A DNA stretch of 52,751 nucleotides from Gammaproteobacteria bacterium (GTDB lineage: Bacteria > Pseudomonadota > Gammaproteobacteria > Arenicellales > UBA868): assembly GCA_011523045.1 (NCBI GenBank), contig WTHR01000187.1, positions 1 to 52,751 of the forward strand, in the 5' to 3' direction. A program made the translations under genes and the position numbers. Shown piece by piece: positions 9,286 to 20,277 of the stretch. The notes below the pieces were generated by a model. It was not told where the DNA came from, did no database searches, and was given only the letters and a program-made list of their open reading frames with translations. Numbering within the stretch: position 1 is the first letter of the stretch; every line of letters starts with the position of its first letter.

Positions 9286-10254
9286 TTGAAGATTTTATTT
9301 GCAGACAAGTTTCCGAAGACCCAGTTGCAGCAACTGCAGGATCAGGGTCACGAGTGCGATCTACAACCTGATCTTGATGGCGACACTTTGTCTCAGGCAG
9401 TGAATGATGCGGAGGTACTGGTTGTCCGTAGCACGAAGATTACGTCTGAAACCATCGGCGCCGCGGCCTCTTTGCGATTGATTATCCGCGCGGGTGCAGG
9501 AACGAACACCATCGATAAGGATGCAGCGGCAGATAGGGGTATTCCGGTCTGCAATATACCGGGGAAGAATGCAGTCGCCGTCGCTGAATTGACCATGGGT
9601 CTGCTGATCGCCATTGACCGGAGGATTCCGGAGAATGTCATCGACCTGAGAGCGGGCCGCTGGAATAAGAAAAAGTATTCAGTCGCCCAGGGGCTCATGG
9701 GTCGTCACATGGGGATTATCGGACTCGGCGCCATTGGACTTGCAGTGGCAGAACGGGCAAGAGCGTTTGGAATCCATGTCTATGTAGTGGATAAGCCCGA
9801 TCGAAGCGCGCAGACTCGAGAGACTCTGGCAAATCTCGGTCTCCAAACTGTTCCCGACCTGGATGCGATGCTGGGAACCTGCGACATCATCAGCTTGCAC
9901 GTCCCGAGTGCCGCTGGGACCAAGGGCATGGTGGATGCGGAATTCCTCGATAAACTTCAGCCGGGCGCCATTCTGATCAACGCCTCCCGGGGTGACGTCA
10001 TTGATGAGGTGGCACTGCTTGCGGCCATGAATGACAAGGGAATCCGCGCGGGATTGGATGTTTATGCTGATGAGCCCTCCGCAGGAGAGGGTGCGTTCTC
10101 ATCTGATCTGGCAGGTCACCCCAACACGTGTGGGACACACCACATTGGTGCGTCCACAGATCAAGCACAAAACGCGGTATCCGACGGCGTTCTGGACGTC
10201 ATTGATGCGTTTGCGGGTGGTACCGTCATGAACTGTGTGAACGGCCAGGGCTGA
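9286..10254 (+). CDS. serA: D-3-phosphoglycerate dehydrogenase (short form, no ACT domain)
   Basis: LVVRSTK, IIRAGAGTNTID, GIIGLGAIG, INASRG, HIGAST; adjacent to serC; TTG start with GGAG upstream. Confidence 0.82.
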   Translation: MKILFADKFPKTQLQQLQDQGHECDLQPDLDGDTLSQAVNDAEVLVVRSTKITSETIGAAASLRLIIRAGAGTNTIDKDAAADRGIPVCNIPGKNAVAVAELTMGLLIAIDRRIPENVIDLRAGRWNKKKYSVAQGLMGRHMGIIGLGAIGLAVAERARAFGIHVYVVDKPDRSAQTRETLANLGLQTVPDLDAMLGTCDIISLHVPSAAGTKGMVDAEFLDKLQPGAILINASRGDVIDEVALLAAMNDKGIRAGLDVYADEPSAGEGAFSSDLAGHPNTCGTHHIGASTDQAQNAVSDGVLDVIDAFAGGTVMNCVNGQG

Positions 10255-10293
10255 ATCGATCCGCATACCGGGATCAATCCCCGAAACCCTGCC

Positions 10294-10372
10294 AGAGAAG
10301 CAAACGAAAAGAGCAACAGAGAAATAAGTAGATAAATAGTAAATAGGTAAATAGAGAGAAGAGATAGATAAG
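10294..10372 (+). repeat. Purine-rich spacer containing TAAATAG x3
   Basis: TAAATAG at 10333, 10340 and 10348; no C between 10319 and 10372. Confidence 0.75.
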
Positions 10373-10374
10373 CC

Positions 10375-11463
10375 ATGACTGAGAGAGTGCACAATTTCAG
10401 CGCGGGACCATGTACCCTGCCGCTGTCCGTTTTGGAAGAGGGCCAGGCTGAGTTCGTGGATTACCACGGTGCCGGTATGTCTTTGATCGAGATGAGCCAC
10501 CGTGGCAAGCATTTTGTCGCTGTCCATGAAGAGGCCATCGATCTTGTCCGGACAGTCTATGGCGTGCCTGATGAGTTTGATGTGCTGTTCTTGCAGGGCG
10601 GGGCAACCCTGCAATTCGCCATGGTGCCGATGAATCTGTTGAAGAGTGGTGAGAGGGGCGCTTATGTGAATTCCGGAACCTGGGCAAAAGGGGCGATCGC
10701 CGATGCCCAGCATTATGGAGATGTCTATACCGCCTGGGATGGGACAGACTGTAACTTCACTCGGATGCCCAATACGGGCGAAATCGAGATTCAGTCAGGC
10801 ACGCGGTACCTGCACCTGACGTCTAATGAGACCATCGGGGGAATCCGGTTCGGCGACTGGCCGAAAGTGGACGTTCCTCTGGTTGGCGATATGTCCTCGG
10901 ACTATATGTCGCGCCCGGTGCCCTGGGATCGTTTCGATCTGGTTTATGGCGGCGCGCAGAAGAACCTCGGCCCTGCAGGAATGGCGTTAGTCATCATTAG
11001 AAAAACAGTGGCTCGGGAAAACAATCAGAACATCGGCCGGTATCTTCGTTACGACATCCAGGCTGATAAAGATTCCATGTTCAATACCCCGCCGGTGTTT
11101 CCGATCTATATGCTCGGCAAAGTGCTCAAATGGATGCGTGATCAAGGCGGTGTAGAGGCGATGGAGCGCCAGGCAGAGGACAAGGCAGGCATCCTTTACC
11201 GCGCGATTGACGACAGCGGCGGTTATTACCGTTGTCCGGTCGATGTGGATTCACGATCGGTGATGAACGTCGTTTTCCGACTGCCTTCTGAGGACCTCGA
11301 AAAGACTTTTCTCTCGGGTGCGGACGCAGCGGGTCTGCTGAATCTGAAAGGGCACCGCAGCGTTGGGGGTATTCGCGCGAGCATCTACAATGCCATGCCC
11401 AAAGAAGGGGTGCAGGCGCTCGCCAGTTTCATGTCGGATTTTCAAGGCGCTCACCCTGCTTGA
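10375..11463 (+). CDS. serC: Phosphoserine aminotransferase
   Basis: HNFSAGP, EMSHRG, LQGGATLQF, DMSS, YGGAQKNLGPAG (PLP lysine), GHRSVGGIRASIYNA. Confidence 0.97.
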   Translation: MTERVHNFSAGPCTLPLSVLEEGQAEFVDYHGAGMSLIEMSHRGKHFVAVHEEAIDLVRTVYGVPDEFDVLFLQGGATLQFAMVPMNLLKSGERGAYVNSGTWAKGAIADAQHYGDVYTAWDGTDCNFTRMPNTGEIEIQSGTRYLHLTSNETIGGIRFGDWPKVDVPLVGDMSSDYMSRPVPWDRFDLVYGGAQKNLGPAGMALVIIRKTVARENNQNIGRYLRYDIQADKDSMFNTPPVFPIYMLGKVLKWMRDQGGVEAMERQAEDKAGILYRAIDDSGGYYRCPVDVDSRSVMNVVFRLPSEDLEKTFLSGADAAGLLNLKGHRSVGGIRASIYNAMPKEGVQALASFMSDFQGAHPA

Positions 11464-11490
11464 GCGAGCGGGTACGCTTTTGGAGTTAAT

Positions 11491-12720
11491 GTGACCCAGA
11501 TTCGCGCTTTTCAACCCCGGGTAGTTACCGCCGAACATGCTGGTTCGGTGGTGGGCCCCGCCTATGATTCGATGACGCCCGACGAGCGGCGAGGTTTTCG
11601 AGCGGCGAATCCGCAGAACTATATTAACGTGATGCGGTCAGTCGATGACTTTCCCGTTGGCGAGCGGCCCACAGAAGAGCAATTACTCCAGGAGAATATT
11701 GATCAATTGAGCCAACTCCTGGCAAGCGGCGCTTATCGACAGTGTGACCAGGACTCGATCTTTATTTATCAGTTGAGTGTCGACGGTCACAGTCAGACCG
11801 GCATCGTTGCCGAAATTCCTGTGGGCGAGTACCGTGATGGTCTGGTGCGAAAACATGAGGAGACGCGCAAGGAACACGAGGAGCGCCTAGGGCACTATCT
11901 TGACTCGGTCGGTGCAACCTCCAGCCCAATCTGTTTAGCCTATGAAGGTACGAACGCGATTGACAGCGTTGTTGAAGAGTTTCTCAATAGTGAGCCGATG
12001 TTGGATTTTCATCTTCCGGACGGCGTCCAACAACGTCTTTGGCAGGTCAGTGATCCGGCGGCGTTGGATAAACTGGTGAGAGGGTTTGCCGATATCCGTT
12101 ACACCTATTTGACGGATGGCCATCATCGTGCGGCTTCAACTCTGCATCATGCCGCCAGCCGCCACGCACAGGGCAAAGGCGACGGTCCATGGGACTACCT
12201 TCTGACAGTGCTGTTCCCTGCGAGCGAGCTACGGGTTCTGCCGTTTAACCGATGTGTGAGAGATCTCGGAGAACTTACCCCACAGACCTTTCTGCAGGAA
12301 CTGGAAAGCGACTTCATTGTCGAAACGATGCCTCATGATCAGGCCGTGTTGCCGTCACGGCAAGGACAGTTTCTCATGCTGATGGAAGGATGTGCAGCAA
12401 CCGTGACTCTTCGATCTCAACCGCAGGATCCCTCGCCGGTCAAAAATCTGGATGTTGCGATCTTGCAGGATCGGATTCTTGCACCCGTACTGGGTATCGA
12501 GGATGCCAGAAAAGATCCCAGACTGGATTATGTGACGGGCGATAGCGGCATCGCAGGTTTGATGCAGCGCGTCCGCGAGGGATGGCAGCTGAGTATCGCC
12601 TGTTATCCCACGTCCATGGGCGAATTGATGGCAGTTGCAGATGCCAGTGAAGTCATGCCGCCCAAATCTACCTGTTTCGATCCCAAACCCCGGTCTGGAC
12701 TGTTCGTTCGAATGTCCTGA
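11491..12720 (+). CDS. DUF1015 family protein
   Basis: HEET, DGHHR, MPPKSTxFxPKxxSGL; conserved serA/serC context. Confidence 0.88.
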   Translation: MTQIRAFQPRVVTAEHAGSVVGPAYDSMTPDERRGFRAANPQNYINVMRSVDDFPVGERPTEEQLLQENIDQLSQLLASGAYRQCDQDSIFIYQLSVDGHSQTGIVAEIPVGEYRDGLVRKHEETRKEHEERLGHYLDSVGATSSPICLAYEGTNAIDSVVEEFLNSEPMLDFHLPDGVQQRLWQVSDPAALDKLVRGFADIRYTYLTDGHHRAASTLHHAASRHAQGKGDGPWDYLLTVLFPASELRVLPFNRCVRDLGELTPQTFLQELESDFIVETMPHDQAVLPSRQGQFLMLMEGCAATVTLRSQPQDPSPVKNLDVAILQDRILAPVLGIEDARKDPRLDYVTGDSGIAGLMQRVREGWQLSIACYPTSMGELMAVADASEVMPPKSTCFDPKPRSGLFVRMS

Positions 12721-12947: not shown

Positions 12948-13646
12948 ATGACTGAAGAAGAATCTGATGATCTGGATCTGAGCACTCTCTCCGACGAAGA
13001 ACTCGTCGAGCAGATGCACGATGATCTCTATGATGGATTAAAAGAGGAGATCGAAGAGGGCACCAACATCCTTCTAGAGCGAGGCTGGGCGGCGGACAAA
13101 GTACTTGCTGACGCCCTAGTCGAAGGGATGCGCATCGTCGGGATTGATTTTCGGGACGGGATCCTTTTTGTGCCGGAAGTGCTGATGGCGGCCAACGCCA
13201 TGAAGGGCGGTATGGCCATTCTGCGACCCCTGCTCGCCGAGACTGGAGCAGAAACGGTCGGCAAGGTTGTCATCGGTACCGTGAAAGGGGATATCCATGA
13301 CATTGGCAAGAACCTTGTCGGCATGATGCTGGAGGGTGCCGGGTTTGAGGTGTTTGATATCGGCATCAACAACCCTGTGGAAAATTATCTCGAGGCAATC
13401 GAGACGCATAAACCGGATATTCTCGGCATGTCGGCGTTGCTGACCACAACTATGCCCTACATGAAGGTGGTGATCGACACCATGGTTGAGCAGGGTATTC
13501 GGGACGACTTTATTGTCCTCGTTGGCGGGGCGCCGCTGAACGAAGAGTTTGGCCAGGCGATTGGGGCAGACGCCTACTGTCGCGATGCGGCGGTGGCAGT
13601 GGAGACCGCCAAGCAACTTGTTGCGGAGAAACGGGCAGCAGCCTGA
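12948..13646 (+). CDS. Stand-alone corrinoid (B12-binding) protein, MtbC/MttC/MetH-cap type
   Basis: Cap domain (LVEGMRIVG..F...ILFVPEV), DxHxxG motif in GDIHDIGKNLV, SALLTTT, VGGAP. Confidence 0.95.
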   Translation: MTEEESDDLDLSTLSDEELVEQMHDDLYDGLKEEIEEGTNILLERGWAADKVLADALVEGMRIVGIDFRDGILFVPEVLMAANAMKGGMAILRPLLAETGAETVGKVVIGTVKGDIHDIGKNLVGMMLEGAGFEVFDIGINNPVENYLEAIETHKPDILGMSALLTTTMPYMKVVIDTMVEQGIRDDFIVLVGGAPLNEEFGQAIGADAYCRDAAVAVETAKQLVAEKRAAA

Positions 13647-13761
13647 TCCAACGAGCGCGGTGATTCACTCGGTTGGGATCTTTATCGCCTGAGCCTGGAT
13701 CTGGAGCAAACCGCTCTTGCTTAGCGTATCCTGCGCTACGTTTTCGCGATGAGGCTTCTCC

Positions 13762-14388
13762 ATGATGCCGTCCCGTACGTCTTCTCAAACCAGTCTGGTG
13801 ATTGCATGCGGTGCGCTGGCGCATGAGATCACGACGTTACTCGAAAGGAACGGTTGGCCACACCTGAAAGTGGAGTGTCTGCCGGCGAGTTTGCACAACC
13901 GTCCAGAGCAGATTGCCCCGGCGGTTCGCAAGAAAATCCAGGCGTCCCGCGCAATTTTCAAGTCAATTTTCGTGGCTTATGCGGATTGCGGGACAGGCGG
14001 ACAATTGGACAAAGTGCTGGCGGAAGAAGGTGTAGAAAGATTGCCGGGGGCGCATTGCTATGAGTTTTTCTGGGGCTCTGATGCTTTCCTGACGCGGCAT
14101 GAGAATGAGCCGGGCGTGTTTTACCTTACCGATTTTCTGGCACGACATTTTGAACGACTCGTGATGGAGGAACTTGGCATACGGGCTCACCCGGAATTGA
14201 AAGAGATGTACTTTTCCCACTACACGAAGCTTGTGTACCTGTCACAATCTGATCTGCCGGATGTGCTCACAATGGCGCGTTCGGCCGCCGACACCCTGGA
14301 GCTAGAGTTTGAGCATGTGCGGACGGGCTTCGGTGAGTTGGAGGCAGGTTTGGCAACGTTTGCCAGGGTGTCCCTCCCGGCAAATTAA
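13762..14388 (+). CDS. DUF1638 domain protein
   Basis: VIACGAL, LPASLHNRPE, YADCGTGG, HCYEF, FYLTDFL; typical neighbour of corrinoid genes. Confidence 0.85.
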   Translation: MMPSRTSSQTSLVIACGALAHEITTLLERNGWPHLKVECLPASLHNRPEQIAPAVRKKIQASRAIFKSIFVAYADCGTGGQLDKVLAEEGVERLPGAHCYEFFWGSDAFLTRHENEPGVFYLTDFLARHFERLVMEELGIRAHPELKEMYFSHYTKLVYLSQSDLPDVLTMARSAADTLELEFEHVRTGFGELEAGLATFARVSLPAN

Positions 14389-14441
14389 CCACTGACAGCG
14401 CTTTCTGACTTCAACTTCTGGCAAAAAGAGCGGAGTAAATC

Positions 14442-14768
14442 ATGGCGAAACTCATTACCGTGTTCTGGCGGGACATCCCCTCTCAAGTCATGGCCCGGAA
14501 GGGGCGTGATACGAAAAAAATCCTGTTGAGCGAAAGGTTTCAAGAAGCGATTGACCGGGCAGCCATGCGTGCGGGCAAAGGATCGTCTGATGCGTACATG
14601 AGTGAATGGCGGCGTGAGACCGTCGCCTGTGATGACGGTGATCTTGATGGCGCCGTCCAGGCGAGAGCGCAGGAACTGGAAGCCGGGTTTTCTGAAGAAG
14701 ACCTTCTGGCGCTGATTCGGACCAAGGGCGTTGCAGATGTTGCAGATAATGAGACGACGTCAGAGTAG
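14442..14768 (+). CDS. Small 'virulence factor' (PF13769-like) domain protein, function unknown
   Basis: WRDIPSQV, LSERFQEAIDRAAM, YMSEWR; strong RBS GGAG. Confidence 0.75.
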   Translation: MAKLITVFWRDIPSQVMARKGRDTKKILLSERFQEAIDRAAMRAGKGSSDAYMSEWRRETVACDDGDLDGAVQARAQELEAGFSEEDLLALIRTKGVADVADNETTSE

Positions 14769-14776
14769 ATTCGACG

Positions 14777-15247
14777 ATGTATGCAGTAAGACAATGGTCG
14801 GTACGCAACTCTCGGAAACTCGAGTGGCTCTATCAGTGTTTTGAGGGAATCCTGATTGCCTTGCATCCTTTCTGGCTGTGGATCGGATATTCACGCATCG
14901 AAAAGCCGATCCGCGCCGTGGAAAAATCCGTAAAGCGCGTGATGTTTGACTGCCAGATGTGCGGTTCCTGTGTGCTGAGTCAGACAGGGATGTCCTGTCC
15001 AATGAATTGCCCCAAGGAACTTCGTAACGGGCCCTGTGGTGGGGTCAGGTCTGACGGTTATTGCGAAGTGGATTCAACAATGCGTTGTGTTTGGGTTGAT
15101 GCATGGGAAGGCAGTCAGCGGATGCGAGATCAGACCCGCATCGCCAGGGTGCAGCCTCCGTTGGCGCAGGGACAGCGTGGCCGGTCTTCATGGCTGAGAG
15201 AAGTGCGGAAGAAGCGTGACCAGATTTTCTTCCAGCAGGATACCTAA
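14777..15247 (+). CDS. Methylene-THF reductase C-terminal-like (MetV-like) Cys-rich subunit
   Basis: Eight-Cys array CQMCGSC..CPMNCPK.LRNGPCGG...C...C directly upstream of metF. Confidence 0.85.
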   Translation: MYAVRQWSVRNSRKLEWLYQCFEGILIALHPFWLWIGYSRIEKPIRAVEKSVKRVMFDCQMCGSCVLSQTGMSCPMNCPKELRNGPCGGVRSDGYCEVDSTMRCVWVDAWEGSQRMRDQTRIARVQPPLAQGQRGRSSWLREVRKKRDQIFFQQDT

Positions 15248-15248
15248 C

Positions 15249-16268
15249 ATGCAGTCTGCCGCCAGTGATCCGGGACAACCGCTGCCTATCCTGGAAGGAC
15301 ATGTCTCTGCGGGCCGTCTCGAGCGAGTTCTGCGTAGCGGCAAGTTTGCTGTGACAGCAGAGATTGCACCGCCCGATGCGGCAGACGCCGAGGCCGTTTA
15401 TCAGCGGGCGAGCGTATTCGACGGTTGTGTGGATGCCATCAACGCCACCGATGGATCTGGCGCCAACTGTCACATGTCAAGCGTGGGCGTGTGTTCGCTG
15501 CTCACGCGTAAAGGTTACGCAATGGTGATGCAGGTATCATGTCGCGACCGTAACCGCATTGCGATTCAGGGGGATGTGCTCGGCGCTGCGGCTATGGGTG
15601 TGACCAATATCCTGTGCCTCACCGGCGACGGGGTACAAGCCGGCGATCAACCCGATGCCAAGCCGGTGTTTGACTTCGACTGCATTAGCCTCCTGCAAAC
15701 GGTTACGGCGATGCGCGATGAAGGTCAGTTCTTGAGCGGCCGCAAGTTGACCACACCGCCGCGGGTCTTTCTCGGCGCCGCGGCCAATCCCTTTGGACCA
15801 CCGCTGGATTATCGTCCCATCAGATTGGAGAAAAAGATCAATGCGGGCGCCCAGTTTGTTCAGACACAATACTGTTTTGATTTAGTACGCTTGCGGGAAT
15901 ACATGAGCCGTGTTCGAGACATGGGTCTCACTGAGCGTTGCTATATTCTTATCGGTGTCGGTCCCATGCCTTCTGCGAGAACAGCTGCGTGGATCAGGGA
16001 CAACGTTCCGGGGGTCCATATCCCCGATGCGGTGATCAAGCGTTTGCTGGGGGCCGAGAATCAGAAAGAAGAAGGCGTCCGCATCTGTGTCGAGATGATC
16101 CAGGCAGTTCGGGAGATCGAAGGGGTGCATGGTGTCCATGTCATGGCGTACAAGCAGGAAGAGCGAGTGCGGGATATTGTGGAGGAGTCGGGTGTGCTGG
16201 AAGGGAGAATTCCGTGGTACCCGGGTGTCAGTAACGACCAGCAAGGTCAGCAAAACGAGGACAGTTAA
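15249..16268 (+). CDS. metF: Methylenetetrahydrofolate reductase
   Basis: VTAEIAPP, NATDG, SCRDRNRIAIQ, CLTGD, KKINAGAQFVQTQ, GVHVMA. Start moved to ATG 15249. Confidence 0.92.
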   Translation: MQSAASDPGQPLPILEGHVSAGRLERVLRSGKFAVTAEIAPPDAADAEAVYQRASVFDGCVDAINATDGSGANCHMSSVGVCSLLTRKGYAMVMQVSCRDRNRIAIQGDVLGAAAMGVTNILCLTGDGVQAGDQPDAKPVFDFDCISLLQTVTAMRDEGQFLSGRKLTTPPRVFLGAAANPFGPPLDYRPIRLEKKINAGAQFVQTQYCFDLVRLREYMSRVRDMGLTERCYILIGVGPMPSARTAAWIRDNVPGVHIPDAVIKRLLGAENQKEEGVRICVEMIQAVREIEGVHGVHVMAYKQEERVRDIVEESGVLEGRIPWYPGVSNDQQGQQNEDS

Positions 16269-17174
16269 GTGACGGTAACAGTTGTCAGTTCAGCAACGAA
16301 GGAAGTCAGGATCGGATTCGATCAGCCTTTCTGCGTGATTGGGGAGCGCATCAATCCAACCGGACGAAAGATTCTGGCAGCGGAGATGAAGGAGGGCGAT
16401 TACAGCCGTGTCGAGGCGGATGCACTGGCGCAGGTCGCTGCGGGGGCTCACATGCTCGACGTCAATGCCGGCATTCCGTTGGCTGATGAACCAGCGATTC
16501 TGGCCGACTGCGTAAAACTTGTGCAGTCCCTGACGGATGTCCCGTTATCGATAGATTCTTCCATCGTGGCAGCTCTGGAATCGGGACTGTCGGTTTATCA
16601 GGGAAAGCCTCTGGTCAATTCGGTAACCGGTGAAGAGGAGCGTTTGGAGCAGGTGCTTCCCTTGGTGAAGAAATACAACGCTGCTGTGGTGGCCATCTCC
16701 AACGACGAAACGGGAATCTCAGAAGACCCCGACGAGCGCTTTGCCGTCGCCAAGAAGATCGTCGAGCGTGCGGCAGATCACGGGATTCCGGCTGAGGATG
16801 TCGTCGTGGACCCACTGGTCATGCCGATTGGGGCGCTCAATGATGCCGGGCGTCAGGTAATGCACATTCTTCGCCGGTTGCGCGATGAGCTCAAGGTCAA
16901 CAGCACCTGTGGGGCGTCCAATGTCAGTTTCGGACTGCCCAACCGTAATGGCCTCAACGCTGCGTTTCTCACCATGGCGATGGGGGCAGGGATGACGTCA
17001 GCCATCACAAGCCCGCTGCATGTAGAAGTCATGCAGGCCATCATGGGGGCTGATGTCATGATGGGCCATGATCCCGACTGTCTCCGATGGATCGCGCGTT
17101 TCCGTGAGCCACCGGCCGAAGGTCAAGTGAGTGCGCGAGAGGGTCGGCGCCGAGGTCGCCGGCGGGCAGGATAA
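16269..17174 (+). CDS. Methyltetrahydrofolate:corrinoid methyltransferase (pterin-binding, AcsE/MetH-folate-domain family)
   Basis: IGERINPTGRK, LDVNAG, LSIDSS, LVNSV, VVDPLVMP, GASNVSFGLP. Confidence 0.92.
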   Translation: MTVTVVSSATKEVRIGFDQPFCVIGERINPTGRKILAAEMKEGDYSRVEADALAQVAAGAHMLDVNAGIPLADEPAILADCVKLVQSLTDVPLSIDSSIVAALESGLSVYQGKPLVNSVTGEEERLEQVLPLVKKYNAAVVAISNDETGISEDPDERFAVAKKIVERAADHGIPAEDVVVDPLVMPIGALNDAGRQVMHILRRLRDELKVNSTCGASNVSFGLPNRNGLNAAFLTMAMGAGMTSAITSPLHVEVMQAIMGADVMMGHDPDCLRWIARFREPPAEGQVSAREGRRRGRRRAG

Positions 17175-17575
17175 TGACTGAGGCGTCTGTTTCAGGCGGT
17201 TGCCTGTGCGGCCAGGTCCGATTTACCGTGCAAGGCCCGTTACGCGAAGTTCTGCTGTGTCATTGCAGTCAATGCAGGAAAATGAGCGGCCATTTCTGGG
17301 CCGCCTCATCCGCACCTCGGGAATGTGTCGATATTTACAAAGATACGGGCCTGCAGTGGTTTCAGTCCTCAAAAGAAGCCAAACGGGGATTTTGCAGTCT
17401 TTGCGGGTCCAGCTTGTTCTGGAGTCATACTGCAAAAACAACTTTGTCCTTTGCGGCCGGCGCTTTGGACAGGCCTACCGGGCTGAAAACGGGCGCGCAT
17501 ATCTTCTTCGATGATGCGTCAGACTACTATCGCGTCCATCCGGACGAAAACACCATTGGCGGCAGTTCATACTGA
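17174..17575 (+). CDS. GFA/CENP-V family Zn-binding protein
   Basis: GGCLCG, CHCSQCRK, RGFCSLCGSSL; start overlaps the upstream stop (TAATG). Confidence 0.9.
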   Translation: MTEASVSGGCLCGQVRFTVQGPLREVLLCHCSQCRKMSGHFWAASSAPRECVDIYKDTGLQWFQSSKEAKRGFCSLCGSSLFWSHTAKTTLSFAAGALDRPTGLKTGAHIFFDDASDYYRVHPDENTIGGSSY

Positions 17576-17602
17576 CGCGGTCTCGTCTAAAGAGATTCGG
17601 CT

Positions 17603-19606
17603 ATGAGTGATGATGTCCTTGTTGTATTTACGCCCTCGGGCAAGCGCGGTCGCGTAGCGCAGGGTACGACTGTGTTGCAGGCCGCCCGCGAGCTGGGCGT
17701 TGATCTGGATTCGGTGTGCGGCGGTAGGGCAATCTGTGGTCGCTGCCAGGTCACGCTAAGTGAAGGCGCTTTCCCCAAGCACGGCATCGAGTCTAGGGCG
17801 GACCATCTGTCAGATCTTGGGGATAATGAGATCGCCTATGATGAAGTCGAGGGACTCGCTGAGGGGCGTCGATTGGGTTGTTCTGCCCGATTGCTGAACG
17901 ATGCGGTTATCGATGTGCCCCCGGAGAGCCAAGTCCACAGGCAGGTTGTTCGCAAAAGAACGGAAGTGCACGACCTGTCGGTTAATCCGCTGGTCAGACT
18001 GCATGTCGTCGAGGTGTCCGAGCCAAGCATGCATGAGCCGGTATCTGATTTGCGTCGGGTGCTCGAAGAATTGGAGTTTGAATGGGGCCTCACTGAGCTT
18101 GAATGTGACCCGCACGTATTGATGGCGCTCCAGGGCGCGCTTCGTGACGGGCAGTGGCAGGTCACCGTTGCGGTCTTCCGGGAGCGGGAAATTGTGGCCA
18201 TCTGGCCGGGTTATCACGAAACCGTGTTGGGCATGGCCTTCGACATCGGGTCTACCACCATCGCCGCCCACCTCGTGGATCTGGCAAGCGGCGAAGCGTT
18301 GGCATCGGCAGGAAGAATGAATCCTCAAATCCGCTTCGGTGAGGATCTCATGAGTCGGGTGTCTTACGTGATGATGCACCCAGGAGCCGAGCATCAGATG
18401 TGTGAGGCGGTGAGGACGGCCGTGGCAGAACTCATCGTAGAGGTTTGTGCGGAGGCGGATCAGAAAACGGACAACATTCTGGATTGCACCTTTGTCGGCA
18501 ATCCGATCATGCACCATCTGTTGTTAGGATTGTCTCCGGTGGAATTGGGGGGCGCACCATTCGCGCTGGCTACCGATAGTGCAGTCACGGTGAGTGCTCA
18601 AAGTCTGGGCCTTGGCATCAATCCGGGCGCACGATGTTATGTTCTGCCTTGTATCGCGGGCCATGTCGGGGCCGACTGCGCCGCTGTTGTGTTGTCCGAG
18701 GCACCTTATCTCCGTGAGGAATTGACCCTGCTCGTGGATGTTGGAACGAATGCAGAGATTGTGCTGGGCAACCGGCATCGACTTCTGGCAGCGAGCAGTC
18801 CTACGGGCCCCGCTTTTGAGGGTGCGCAGATCAGTTCCGGACAGCGTGCTGCGCCAGGAGCCATCGAGCGGGTAAGAATCGATCCACAGACCCTTGAGCC
18901 CCGATTCAGAGTGATTGGTTGTGAGCTGTGGTCGGACCATCCTGATTTCGCCGAACAGACAGCTGATCTTGGCATTACCGGTATCTGTGGCTCAGGGATT
19001 ATCGAAGTTCTGGCAGAGCTCTATCTCGCACAGGTGATCAATAGTGATGGCGTGGTCGATGGGACGCTTTCGAGCCGCTCAGAGCGAATCGTGGAAGACG
19101 GGCGAACGTTCGCCTATGTTCTGCATGAGGGGGACATTCGCATCGCGATTACACAGAACGACGTTCGGGCGATTCAATTGGCAAAAGCGGCGTTGTATGC
19201 CGGTGTGCGTCTGTTGATGGATAAGCTGAATGTAGATACGGTGGATCGGATTCGGCTTGCTGGTGCATTTGGATCACATATTGATGTGAAATACGCGATG
19301 ATCTTGGGACTAATCCCTGACTGCGCTCTTGAGAATGTGACTTCTGCCGGCAATGCCGCGGGCAGCGGGGCTCACATTGCATTGGTAGACGCAAACGCGC
19401 GCGAGGAGATTGAGAGGGAAATTCGCCGCATCGAAAAAGTGGAAACGGCGGTGGAAAGCCGGTTCCAGGAGCACTTTGTTGAGGCGATGGCGATTCCTCA
19501 CAAGAGTGCACCGTTTGAGGAGCTGGGCAAAGCCGTGGTTTTGCCTGTTCGTGATAATGCTGCTTCACAAGCCCCAGCGTCTGGACGTCGACGTCGCCGC
19601 CGGTGA
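17603..19606 (+). CDS. ATP-dependent reductive activator of corrinoid proteins (RACE/RamA-like; 2Fe-2S + ASKHA/DUF4445)
   Basis: N-terminal CGGRAICGRC...RLGC 2Fe-2S domain; DIGSTT, DVGTNAE, GPAFEG, GICGSG, LAGAFG, GNAAG. Confidence 0.93.
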   Translation: MSDDVLVVFTPSGKRGRVAQGTTVLQAARELGVDLDSVCGGRAICGRCQVTLSEGAFPKHGIESRADHLSDLGDNEIAYDEVEGLAEGRRLGCSARLLNDAVIDVPPESQVHRQVVRKRTEVHDLSVNPLVRLHVVEVSEPSMHEPVSDLRRVLEELEFEWGLTELECDPHVLMALQGALRDGQWQVTVAVFREREIVAIWPGYHETVLGMAFDIGSTTIAAHLVDLASGEALASAGRMNPQIRFGEDLMSRVSYVMMHPGAEHQMCEAVRTAVAELIVEVCAEADQKTDNILDCTFVGNPIMHHLLLGLSPVELGGAPFALATDSAVTVSAQSLGLGINPGARCYVLPCIAGHVGADCAAVVLSEAPYLREELTLLVDVGTNAEIVLGNRHRLLAASSPTGPAFEGAQISSGQRAAPGAIERVRIDPQTLEPRFRVIGCELWSDHPDFAEQTADLGITGICGSGIIEVLAELYLAQVINSDGVVDGTLSSRSERIVEDGRTFAYVLHEGDIRIAITQNDVRAIQLAKAALYAGVRLLMDKLNVDTVDRIRLAGAFGSHIDVKYAMILGLIPDCALENVTSAGNAAGSGAHIALVDANAREEIEREIRRIEKVETAVESRFQEHFVEAMAIPHKSAPFEELGKAVVLPVRDNAASQAPASGRRRRRR

Positions 19607-20277
19607 CCCGCAATCTGAAATCCGTTAAGGAATCGCTTTCCCGCGTGGCGATGTTCCAGTCGCTGGGCGAGTCTGATCTGGAAGTGATGGCTGGCGTCGC
19701 TAGACAGATAACGGCTGAGCGCGGTGAGCTTATCGTGAGCCAGGGTTCAGACGGCGAAAGCCTCTATATCGTTGTCGACGGACAGATTCGCGTTTACGTT
19801 TCTGATGAAGCCGGCAAAGAGATGATTCTGGAACTCGAGGGACCTGGTGCGATTTTTGGGGAAATTGCAGTACTTGACGGTGAGCCCCGATCTGCGTCGG
19901 TGGCTGCAATGCAACGTACCGATCTCCTCATGATTGAAGGCCGTGAATTCCGTCGGCTGCTGGAGTCGCATGCGGAATTATCTCTTGGAGTGATTGCCGC
20001 ATTGGCGGGAATGATTCGTAAGTTAACCGATGCCACGCAGGGACTGGCCCTGCAGAGCGCCTATCGGCGCCTCGTCGCCCGTCTGTATGAGCGTGCGGTA
20101 GAGGAGGATGGGCAGACCGTGATCCCCGAAAGACTGACGCACCAGTTGTTGGCAGATATGATTGGTTGCTCCCGTGAGATGGTTAGTCGGATCATGAGTG
20201 ATCTCGCGAAAGGCGGGTATATTCGAACCGAGGGTAAGCGATGGATCATTGTGCGCAAGCTCCCCGCCGATTACTGA
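19603..20277 (+). CDS. Crp/Fnr family transcriptional regulator (Crp-like, no Fe-S Cys cluster)
   Basis: cNMP domain FGEIA...PRSASV; HTH LTHQLLADMIGCSREMVSR; GTGA overlap with the RACE gene. Confidence 0.92.
   Translation: MTRNLKSVKESLSRVAMFQSLGESDLEVMAGVARQITAERGELIVSQGSDGESLYIVVDGQIRVYVSDEAGKEMILELEGPGAIFGEIAVLDGEPRSASVAAMQRTDLLMIEGREFRRLLESHAELSLGVIAALAGMIRKLTDATQGLALQSAYRRLVARLYERAVEEDGQTVIPERLTHQLLADMIGCSREMVSRIMSDLAKGGYIRTEGKRWIIVRKLPADY

Follow-up and report, generated by a model that had tools for sequence, protein, structure and literature searches.

What is the role of the arginine runs found at the ends of two enzymes encoded next to a very acidic corrinoid protein? The question arises from a 52,751-nt contig of an Arenicellales gammaproteobacterium (hereafter the window), for which an earlier note had proposed that the tails of a methyltransferase and a reductive activator zip onto the oppositely charged N terminus of their shared B12 carrier, replacing the covalent linkage of fused methionine synthase.

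Identity of the Locus

The window carries the already known MtgBCDE/RamA system, a split methionine synthase combined with glycine-betaine demethylase (Table 1). This split system with RamA and DUF1638 has been described in Ruegeria pomeroyi and Phaeobacter inhibens, the only organisms for which these sources give genetic proof of pathway function (Mausz et al. 2025, PMC12478193; Price et al., 10.1101/192971). The gene set matches theirs: MtgC, MtgD, a RamA-like activator, DUF1638, and MetF are encoded in the window, MtgE (G000:C8:14296-15333; PF02574, E 1.8e-61) and nine intact PF06253 (MtgB/MttB) genes outside it, and no fused MetH was found with tblastn and PF02310/PF02574 searches of the 90.5% complete genome. 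Absence of fused MetH is usual for the MtgBCDE system, though not obligatory. Close homologues of MtgE occur in 40 of 45 genomes, and the gene of the PF13769 protein is a regular cluster member, present nearly always. A promoter and terminator scan returned fewer sites than shuffled sequences.

By sequence, MtgC is assigned as a stand-alone carrier of the roseobacter MtgC clade. It is 67 to 83% identical to the carriers of 30 RACE-bearing genomes of the same phylum, and a homologue search returned only proteins 92 to 100% identical. It scores below the cut-offs of the anaerobic MtgC equivalogs NF047995 and NF047996 (208.6 and 174.6 bits vs. 370 and 310) and of AcsV (NF040756; 386 vs. 800). Searches of the genome turned up no other corrinoid protein for methyl transfer, leaving MtgC as the one carrier alongside nine MttB.

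Table 1. Features of the locus, with positions counted from the first letter of the window
Feature	Position	Strand	Basis
MtgC, stand-alone corrinoid (B12-carrier) protein	12948..13646	+	Pfam PF02607 (cap domain) and PF02310 (B12-binding Rossmann domain); 232 aa
MtgC acidic N-terminal region, residues 1-38	12948..13061	+	Residue count and AlphaFold2 model
DUF1638 protein	13762..14388	+	PF07796
Small PF13769 protein, function unassigned	14442..14768	+	Pfam match
Cys-rich subunit, MTHFR C-terminal-like	14777..15247	+	Pfam (PF12225/DUF5981)
MetF-type methylene-THF reductase, without Arg tail	15216..16268	+	PF02219
MtgD, methyl-THF:corrinoid methyltransferase	16269..17174	+	NF005719, 371.8 bits (cut-off 259); PF00809
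MtgD Arg-rich C-terminal tail, residues 289-301 and stop	17133..17174	+	Sequence
GFA-family gene between mtgD and ramA, untailed	17174..17575	+	Pfam (PF04828)
RamA-like/RACE ATP-dependent corrinoid reductive activator (2Fe-2S and ASKHA)	17603..19606	+	PF00111, PF17650, PF17651, PF14574; fold match 3ZYY/4C1N
RamA linker (predicted disordered) and six-Arg C-terminal tail, residues 652-667	19556..19606	+	pLDDT < 50

A Carrier with an Acidic Front, Predicted to Be Mostly Folded

The N terminus of MtgC is as acidic as first noticed, with 17 Asp/Glu and 1 Lys within residues 1 to 38. The net charge of this segment (−16) is the acidic extreme among 2,457 non-overlapping ORFs of at least 100 aa, our own-genome background, with the runner-up at −11; the whole protein has a net charge of −28. 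In the AlphaFold2 model, disorder (pLDDT < 50) is limited to residues 1 to 7, and residues 11 to 44, containing the cap helices 16–28 and 32–44, have a pLDDT of 94 to 97. As disorder is confined to the first seven residues, the ordered part accounts for 13 of the 17 acids. The zipper image is not supported as first put: according to the model, most of the acidic region is the surface of a folded cap domain and not a floppy strand. The acids specific to the clade are D7, D8, D16, E17, and D26 and, further along, D67 and D70; the cap domain of plain carriers also has some acids.

Arginine-Rich Ends Occur in Four Families

Both reported tails were found as described, MtgD ending in AREGRRRGRRRAG (7 Arg in 13 residues) and RamA in PASGRRRRRR (Arg run at 19586-19603; codons CGT CGA CGT CGC CGC CGG). 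A slippage repeat is ruled out as their origin by the mixed Arg codons. At least 6 Arg in the last 13 residues are seen in only 6 of the 2,457 ORFs, and MtgD, RamA, and MtgE are among those 6. MtgE is the third tailed protein predicted to exist elsewhere in the genome: it is unlinked to the window and ends in HKRRSRQGRRRRA, with a chance of about 4/2455 for such an outcome. Rather than two tailed partner families there are four, the last being the MttB enzymes. All nine MttB paralogs have an N-terminal Arg/Lys cluster with 5 to 8 R/K per 12-residue window, and at least 6 R/K in such a window are present in 7 of 9 MttB compared with 49 of 2,080 ORFs. A Tat signal on MttB was rejected, as no hydrophobic stretch follows the Arg cluster (judged by eye).

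None of the three other PF02574 proteins of the genome has a C-terminal tail. The proteome scan for other Arg-rich C termini found MtgE, and none of 20 picked basic-ended ORFs (16 named by Pfam, 4 unnamed) was a further corrinoid enzyme; the sole PF01208 match, tried as an extra client, has a score fitting ordinary HemE. Other basic tails are on poly(A) polymerase, RNase R, a tyrosine recombinase, a GntR regulator, and membrane proteins, and such tails therefore often bind nucleic acid or lipid. This company would suit a scenario where the clients are brought together by binding of their tails to a polyanion such as RNA, the nucleoid, polyphosphate, or anionic lipid, the acidity of the carrier being a separate trait; several tails also resemble Arg/Gly-rich RNA-binding segments. 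A polyanion would, however, repel the carrier, which has no tail itself, the folate enzymes of the same operon are mostly untailed, and tails track carrier type within single genomes (see below), making the scenario quite unlikely.

Conservation of the Tails

For conservation, we counted as a tail at least 5 Arg in 15 residues, located in the last 40 residues. The proposed check on homologues came out in favor of conservation: tails are kept in 41/41 MtgD, 42/42 RamA (own included), and 31/32 MtgE close homologues, and are missing from distant ones (0/2 MtgD, 0/12 RACE). A seeming loss in one RamA (G039) is only apparent, as the frame is broken and the Arg run lies in another frame. Among the 41 MtgD sequences, R299 is invariant and R297 and R298 are at least 90% conserved, and the same level is reached by RamA R663 to R665. 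The Arg run is retained across relatives although the linker drifts; all six Arg codons occur, CGN accounting for 238 of the 258 Arg codons of tails. Selection for Arg is supported by these sequence patterns. A ribosome-site or gene-overlap constraint is ruled out by the mostly CGN codons and by downstream genes that vary across genomes.

The tails could also be low-complexity ends that arose neutrally from high GC and were passed on as part of a mobile gene cluster. The codons for Arg, Gly, Ala, and Pro are indeed GC-rich, and the covariation with the carrier rests on few independent events. Nevertheless, the ends appear at unlinked loci in four families that are at most distantly related, Arg persists despite linker drift and codon variation, and same-genome paralogs serve as controls without tails. 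We consider a neutral origin very improbable.

Tails Follow the Carrier Type

We scanned 200 loci, 116 of which have a stand-alone carrier, using a 12-row RACE alignment, the 57-row version being too diverse. RACE is tailed in 33 of 36 cases beside acidic carriers and in 1 of 70 beside plain carriers; for MtgD the numbers are 26/26 and 0/14. As controls beside acidic carriers, DUF1638 and the PF13769 protein never have a tail (0/27 and 0/26) and MetF has a basic end in 2 of 21 cases; two Chloroflexota-type MetF with basic ends count as exceptions. In genome G349, the MtgC-linked RACE is tailed while the other RACE are untailed in 6 of 7 cases and borderline in 1, and of five stand-alone MtgD only the MtgC-linked one has a tail; G350 and G020 repeat the pattern. 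That the tail follows the carrier within single genomes argues against GC or codon bias, which the same-genome paralogs rule out as a cause. Tails are missing from co-operonic nonpartners and from most same-genome paralogs serving other carriers. Their association with MtgC-type carriers is supported at the sequence level, and the putative tag is found on clients and absent from nonclients, apart from the exceptions below.

The controls also bear on a possible common signal to a third protein, such as a protease adaptor, a chaperone, or a DUF1638/PF13769 scaffold. Basic terminal degradation signals are known for ClpXP. The PF13769 protein is almost constant in the cluster, and DUF1638 is required for the pathway, with no role assigned to it by Price et al. 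(10.1101/192971). Against such a signal, the tag is found at either terminus, and DUF1638 (net −7) and the PF13769 protein (net −5) are only mildly acidic, whereas MtgC is the extreme of the proteome; we see little probability in it.

Exceptions are of several kinds. One RamA (L277) has only a weak basic end, though beside a true MtgC, one MtgE (L288) is without a tail, and another (G030) has 4 Arg. A RACE (L231) and an MttB (L077) are tailed next to plain carriers, MtgC being also present in both genomes, and two RACE (L235 and L241) have Lys-rich ends next to plain carriers. Among proteobacterial MttB, 7 of 27 fall below the strict cut-off, yet each has several Arg. On the side of the association, by contrast, 0 of 12 MttB in three anaerobe genomes are tailed, and the D. 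hafniense-type MtgB chain 9YCE starts at the end point of the tail; the tail is included in the sequence deposited for PDB 4YYC.

The acidic carriers form one starred clade (38 rows), and RACE tail and carrier type offer only three independent pairs (sign test, p = 1), so that the covariation is mostly shared ancestry. The expected co-occurrence of tails and acidic carriers stands as an association, but the covariation is at the level of clades. In the RACE tree, a lone long-branch untailed row separates two tailed groups; two independent gains are not required, as one gain and one loss fit equally. The MttB tree, inferred with tails excluded, has two separate tailed clades, and its starred branches force 2 changes; one of these clades is sister to untailed proteins of a Bacillota-labelled genome.

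Comparison with Known Systems

The Hcy, folate, cap, and B12 modules of MetH are homologous to the split proteins here, and the MtgD tail and MtgC tip correspond to the 40-residue Fol-to-Cap linker of a MetH fragment. MetH has covalent tethers and SAM-dependent reactivation, whereas here reactivation is by RACE. The suggestion that tails replace covalent linkage in split systems was not borne out as a general rule: where the stand-alone carrier is of the ordinary kind, 69 of 70 RACE are untailed, and so is the MetH of G160:C4, which is split naturally. Tails are therefore no general substitute for the covalent link. MtgC has itself been argued not to derive from the splitting of MetH (Mausz et al. 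2025, PMC12478193).

The carriers of MttB–MttC (PDB 7XCN) and MtaB–MtaC (PDB 2I2X) have their fold in common with MtgC but align only from MtgC residue 16 onward. Partner specificity in these pairs comes from the cap domain and an N-terminal add-on (PMC9842639), and in a solved archaeal complex the carrier cap is a main partner contact. Theirs is a folded contact specific to a cognate pair, whereas the one proposed here would rely on a charged tail of one general type, shared by many clients that are not related to each other. The activator RACo, whose partner is CoFeSP (PDB 3ZYY, 4C1N), has the same fold as RamA (Foldseek E 3e-59). Its chain of 631 residues stops 9 residues past the aligned part and thus has no room for the 33-residue extension of RamA. 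Acyl carrier protein is likewise small and acidic and meets many enzymes through charge, via basic patches on its partners, and terminal docking peptides keep split PKS/NRPS assembly lines together. The basic element of those systems is either a folded patch or a helix specific to its pair, whereas the tag proposed here would be disordered and portable and could sit at either terminus.

The MtgBCDE papers cover genetics, proteomics, and distribution (PMC12478193; 10.1101/192971), and the Arg tails were seen in the present analysis. In term searches of the Mausz text and three supplements (PMC12478193), neither arginine tails nor acidic ends nor electrostatics came up, and the literature searched contained no description of Arg tails paired with an acidic carrier.

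Discussion

MtgC functions with MtgB, MtgD, MtgE, and RamA in the published systems, and we think it probable that the Arg-rich ends of MtgD, RamA, MtgE, and MttB are a shared electrostatic docking tag for its acidic cap. A flexible client tail would capture the cap surface at a patch formed by D7, D8, D16–E18, D25, D26, D29, E33, E34, and E37, and probably also D67/D70, and the captured carrier would be held near the client while the B12 domain swings to the active site. Since a single patch would serve all clients, these would compete for it and replace one another rapidly, and such rapid exchange would let one carrier serve 12 enzymes encoded across the genome. In an aerobic cell, exposure of the reactive Co(I) state may also be shortened. 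Eubacterium is said to use one carrier for several MttB; if those MttB are without tails, carrier sharing needs none.

The same charges could instead drive multivalent co-condensation of carrier and clients into a liquid B12 methyl-transfer body, in place of one-to-one docking. Carrier and all clients carry opposite charges, Arg/Gly tails are of low complexity, RamA residues 652 to 667 are predicted to be disordered (pLDDT < 50), and the MttB-family structures solved so far show dimers or hexamers, which would present several tails. Condensation is nonetheless unlikely given the single short tail per chain, client bodies that are net acidic (−7 to −33), and carrier acids that in the model are mostly in one folded patch.

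A bolder version of the docking tag is possible but rather doubtful: a portable, interchangeable poly-Arg address, gained separately by four families and possibly twice within MttB, that makes one B12 carrier a plug-and-play hub. If so, a corrinoid methyltransferase acquiring the tag at either end would join the network, new clients would be predictable from sequence by the tag, and tag grafting could connect methionine and folate metabolism to new methyl donors.

MtgBCDE is reported to be one of the major pathways by which ocean bacteria demethylate glycine betaine and make methionine (PMC12478193). If the docking tag is real, it would show which MttB paralogs are served by MtgC, caution that an affinity tag or truncation at a terminus could inactivate these enzymes, and supply a rule for designing cobamide methyltransferase biocatalysts. 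A shared charged tag would also explain how a single small carrier locates a dozen partners that are encoded separately.

Gene Content of the Locus

The methyl-transfer system in this operon-like run is already known. Its gene set is that of a split methionine synthase described in Phaeobacter inhibens (Price et al., 10.1101/192971), which in Ruegeria pomeroyi was shown to demethylate glycine betaine as well, under the name MtgBCDE (Mausz et al. 2025, PMC12478193). Relatives 96–98% identical to MtgC, the corrinoid protein, carry the source labels Arenicellales or Acidiferrobacteraceae. The upstream serine genes fit a C1/serine neighborhood, and the downstream regulator may be co-transcribed with ramA. 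The PF13769 protein is regular in mtgC clusters of marine and Chloroflexota genomes; it more likely acts in B12 or folate handling than in virulence, and its Pfam label appears misleading.

Features of the corrinoid system and its surroundings
Feature	Position	Remark
Serine synthesis genes	window 9286-12720	SerA-like dehydrogenase, SerC-like aminotransferase and DUF1015; directly 5' of mtgC
Operon-like run	window 12948-19606	corrinoid protein, DUF1638, PF13769 protein, MTHFR C-terminal-like subunit, MetF, methyl-THF:corrinoid methyltransferase (MtgD), GFA protein, RACE activator (RamA)
PF13769 protein	window 14442-14768	Pfam label "Virulence factor"
CRP/FNR-family regulator	window 19603-20277	4-base overlap with ramA stop codon
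Second PF12225 protein	G000:C187:5098-6255 (own genome)	fused to Rieske domain; adjoins another MetF paralog
MtgE, unlinked homocysteine methyltransferase	C8:14296-15333 (own genome)	another contig

Basic Tails in the Genome

The earlier note had described an Arg-rich C terminus on MtgD (AREGRRRGRRRAG), the terminus PASGRRRRRR with six mixed CGN codons on the RACE activator, and 17 Asp/Glu with one Lys within the 38 N-terminal residues of MtgC, and all are present exactly as claimed. Among the 2,457 ORFs called mechanically in this genome (2.72 Mb, 90.5% complete), six have at least 6 Arg in their last 13 residues, and the start of MtgC is the most acidic of all. A tail predicted for the missing methyltransferase was indeed found: MtgE ends HKRRSRQGRRRRA and is among the same six ORFs, a placement with a chance of ~4/2455 for a random ORF, and the other PF02574 proteins of the genome (n = 3) have no MtgE-like Arg end. 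Close to the start, each of the nine MttB-family genes encodes a 12-residue stretch containing 5–8 Arg/Lys; seven of the nine reach at least 6, vs. 49 of the 2,080 ORFs of at least 150 aa. The tag is found on four families and at two different ends. The remaining PF02310 proteins of the genome (717 and 1,093 aa) appear mutase-like in sequence, which leaves a single carrier for 12 tailed enzymes. That the tails instead bind a polyanion is favored by the other basic tails of this proteome, which sit on nucleic-acid and membrane proteins, but we regard this as improbable.

Conservation and Covariation

For conservation, we required at least 5 Arg per 15 residues inside the last 40 and used the best 30 loci of each search and hand-picked regions, all within the window's order and phylum. 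In this set, tails are present in 41/41 close MtgD, 42/42 close RamA (own included) and 31/32 MtgE; by the same measure, distant homologues have tails in 0/2 MtgD and 0/12 RACE. Across 22 close relatives, the RamA linker varies freely and the basic run is kept, using all six Arg codons; the idea that the tails are drift is very hard to credit. The single apparent RamA tail loss among close relatives is a frame break. Among 150 RACE representatives, 91 of them near full length, tails occur mostly above ~42% identity, with a few lower; P0192 and P0263, at 34–35% identity, also end in Arg-rich segments and lie apart from the main tailed clade, and carriers looked for beside these two were not found. 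Many MtgD of family f61 (loci L158–L173) are ~355 aa long, with ~55 additional residues preceding the tail. A tail of the general kind described here is part of the deposited sequence of PDB 4YYC.

Covariation was computed from 200 loci. Of these, 40 were hand-picked, 80 were the top matches in named genomes to a RACE alignment of 12 rows, and 80 were the top matches to P0128 in metagenomes. A stand-alone carrier was present at 116, and the other 84 were left out. Carriers with net charge −9 or lower were called acidic; a tail had to have at least 4 Arg and at least 5 Arg+Lys in 12 residues. With these thresholds, chosen after the data were seen, and near-duplicates included, tails were found beside acidic vs. 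plain carriers on 33/36 vs. 1/70 RACE, 26/26 vs. 0/14 MtgD, and 2/3 vs. 0/1 MtgE. Controls beside acidic carriers were tailed in 0/27 (DUF1638), 0/26 (PF13769) and 2/21 (MetF) cases, and the pattern extends to Chloroflexota. The cross-genome covariation is, however, mostly a single inheritance with very few events behind it. The RACE tree gave 3 independent pairs (sign-test P = 1), with a single long-branch row alone parting the two tailed groups, and all 38 rows of acidic carriers fall into one starred clade.

There are exceptions. RamA at L277 has a weakly basic end despite a true MtgC alongside, and MtgE at L288 lacks the tail; RACE at L231 and MttB at L077 are tailed next to plain carriers, with MtgC elsewhere in both genomes. 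RACE at L235 and L241 terminate in Lys-rich stretches; the neighboring carriers are plain, though fairly acidic. These Lys/Arg-ended proteins belong to a delta-type clade, with close relatives having neither basic end nor acidic carrier, and are possibly a separate early gain. Basic ends also occur on two MetF.

Same-Genome Controls

The internal evidence from several families, same-genome paralogs and MttB clades is stronger than the cross-genome covariation. In G349 (L231; 10.4 Mb, Ardenticatenaceae label), the RACE beside an MtgC-type gene is tailed, while six others are untailed and one is borderline; of its five stand-alone MtgD, the MtgC-linked one alone has a tail. The paralogs of genomes G350 and G020 agree. 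The methyl-transfer repertoire of G349 is unusually large, at 18 matches to corrinoid proteins and 8 paralogs of RACE. In the MttB tree (tails removed; FastTree only), tailed proteins form two starred clades, one of them sister to untailed proteins of a Bacillota-labelled genome. With a strict cut-off, tails were found on 0/12 MttB in three anaerobe genomes, 8/13 in three Chloroflexota genomes, and 20/27 in proteobacterial ones. Some genomes from the genus of the window have a second, anaerobe-like corrinoid system with a plain carrier and untailed MttB (L074, G020:C90; L075, G007:C105; L076, G017:C18), in G020 also with its own RACE, MtgD and DUF1638; it likely serves another methyl donor.

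Structure and Proposed Docking

The earlier reading of the tails as a replacement of covalent linkage in a split system does not hold in general: one naturally split MetH (a single case) and most plain multi-component systems are untailed, so loss of the covalent link alone does not require tails. A betaproteobacteria-like cluster (L095–L104; families f52 and f55) with short RACE, DUF1638, a plain carrier, sometimes ~600 aa and fused, and MetH elsewhere is untailed. Corrinoid domains at L078, L079 and L080 (same-order genomes) lie within open frames of 619–643 aa, by size candidate CmuA-like fusions. On a MetH fragment alignment, MtgD residue 258 and MtgC residue 3 are placed 40 residues apart, and the MtgD tail of the split system therefore maps where MetH has its covalent linker.

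AlphaFold2 models MtgC (43 sequences, mean pLDDT 88) with residues 1–7 disordered and 11–44 confident, the latter including cap helices 16–28 and 32–44; the putative tail target would thus be an acidic surface that is folded except for a short flexible tip. L11, L14 and L19 are invariant, and acids at positions 7, 8, 26 and 67 occur in 97–100% of 37 MtgC-type carriers vs. 0–6% of 86 others. In the RamA model, residues 652–667 have pLDDT <50. Co-condensation of tails and carrier seems unlikely, as does recognition of the tails by a third protein.

ClpXP signals offer a parallel for terminal tags, and ACP and PKS docking are analogies for tail–carrier docking. Work on activator–corrinoid protein contacts in Acetobacterium dehalogenans reportedly exists and may bear on the acidic side. 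Probably, electrostatic attraction lets the client tail capture the MtgC cap and keep the carrier in place during docking of the B12 domain, after which the carrier is released to the next client; all clients would contest a single cap patch. We infer the binding step, the competition, the interchangeability and a benefit under oxygen. Partner contact through the carrier's cap has a precedent in MttB–MttC, and contact through an N-terminal add-on has one in MtaB–MtaC (PMC9842639).

The literature searched, which took in few subscription papers, gave no description of these tails, and term look-up gave no mention in the main text and three supplements of Mausz 2025 or in the part of bioRxiv 2025.12.19.695462 outside its supplements. 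The Arg tails and acidic carrier, apparently undescribed so far, are a real, selected feature of a known system.
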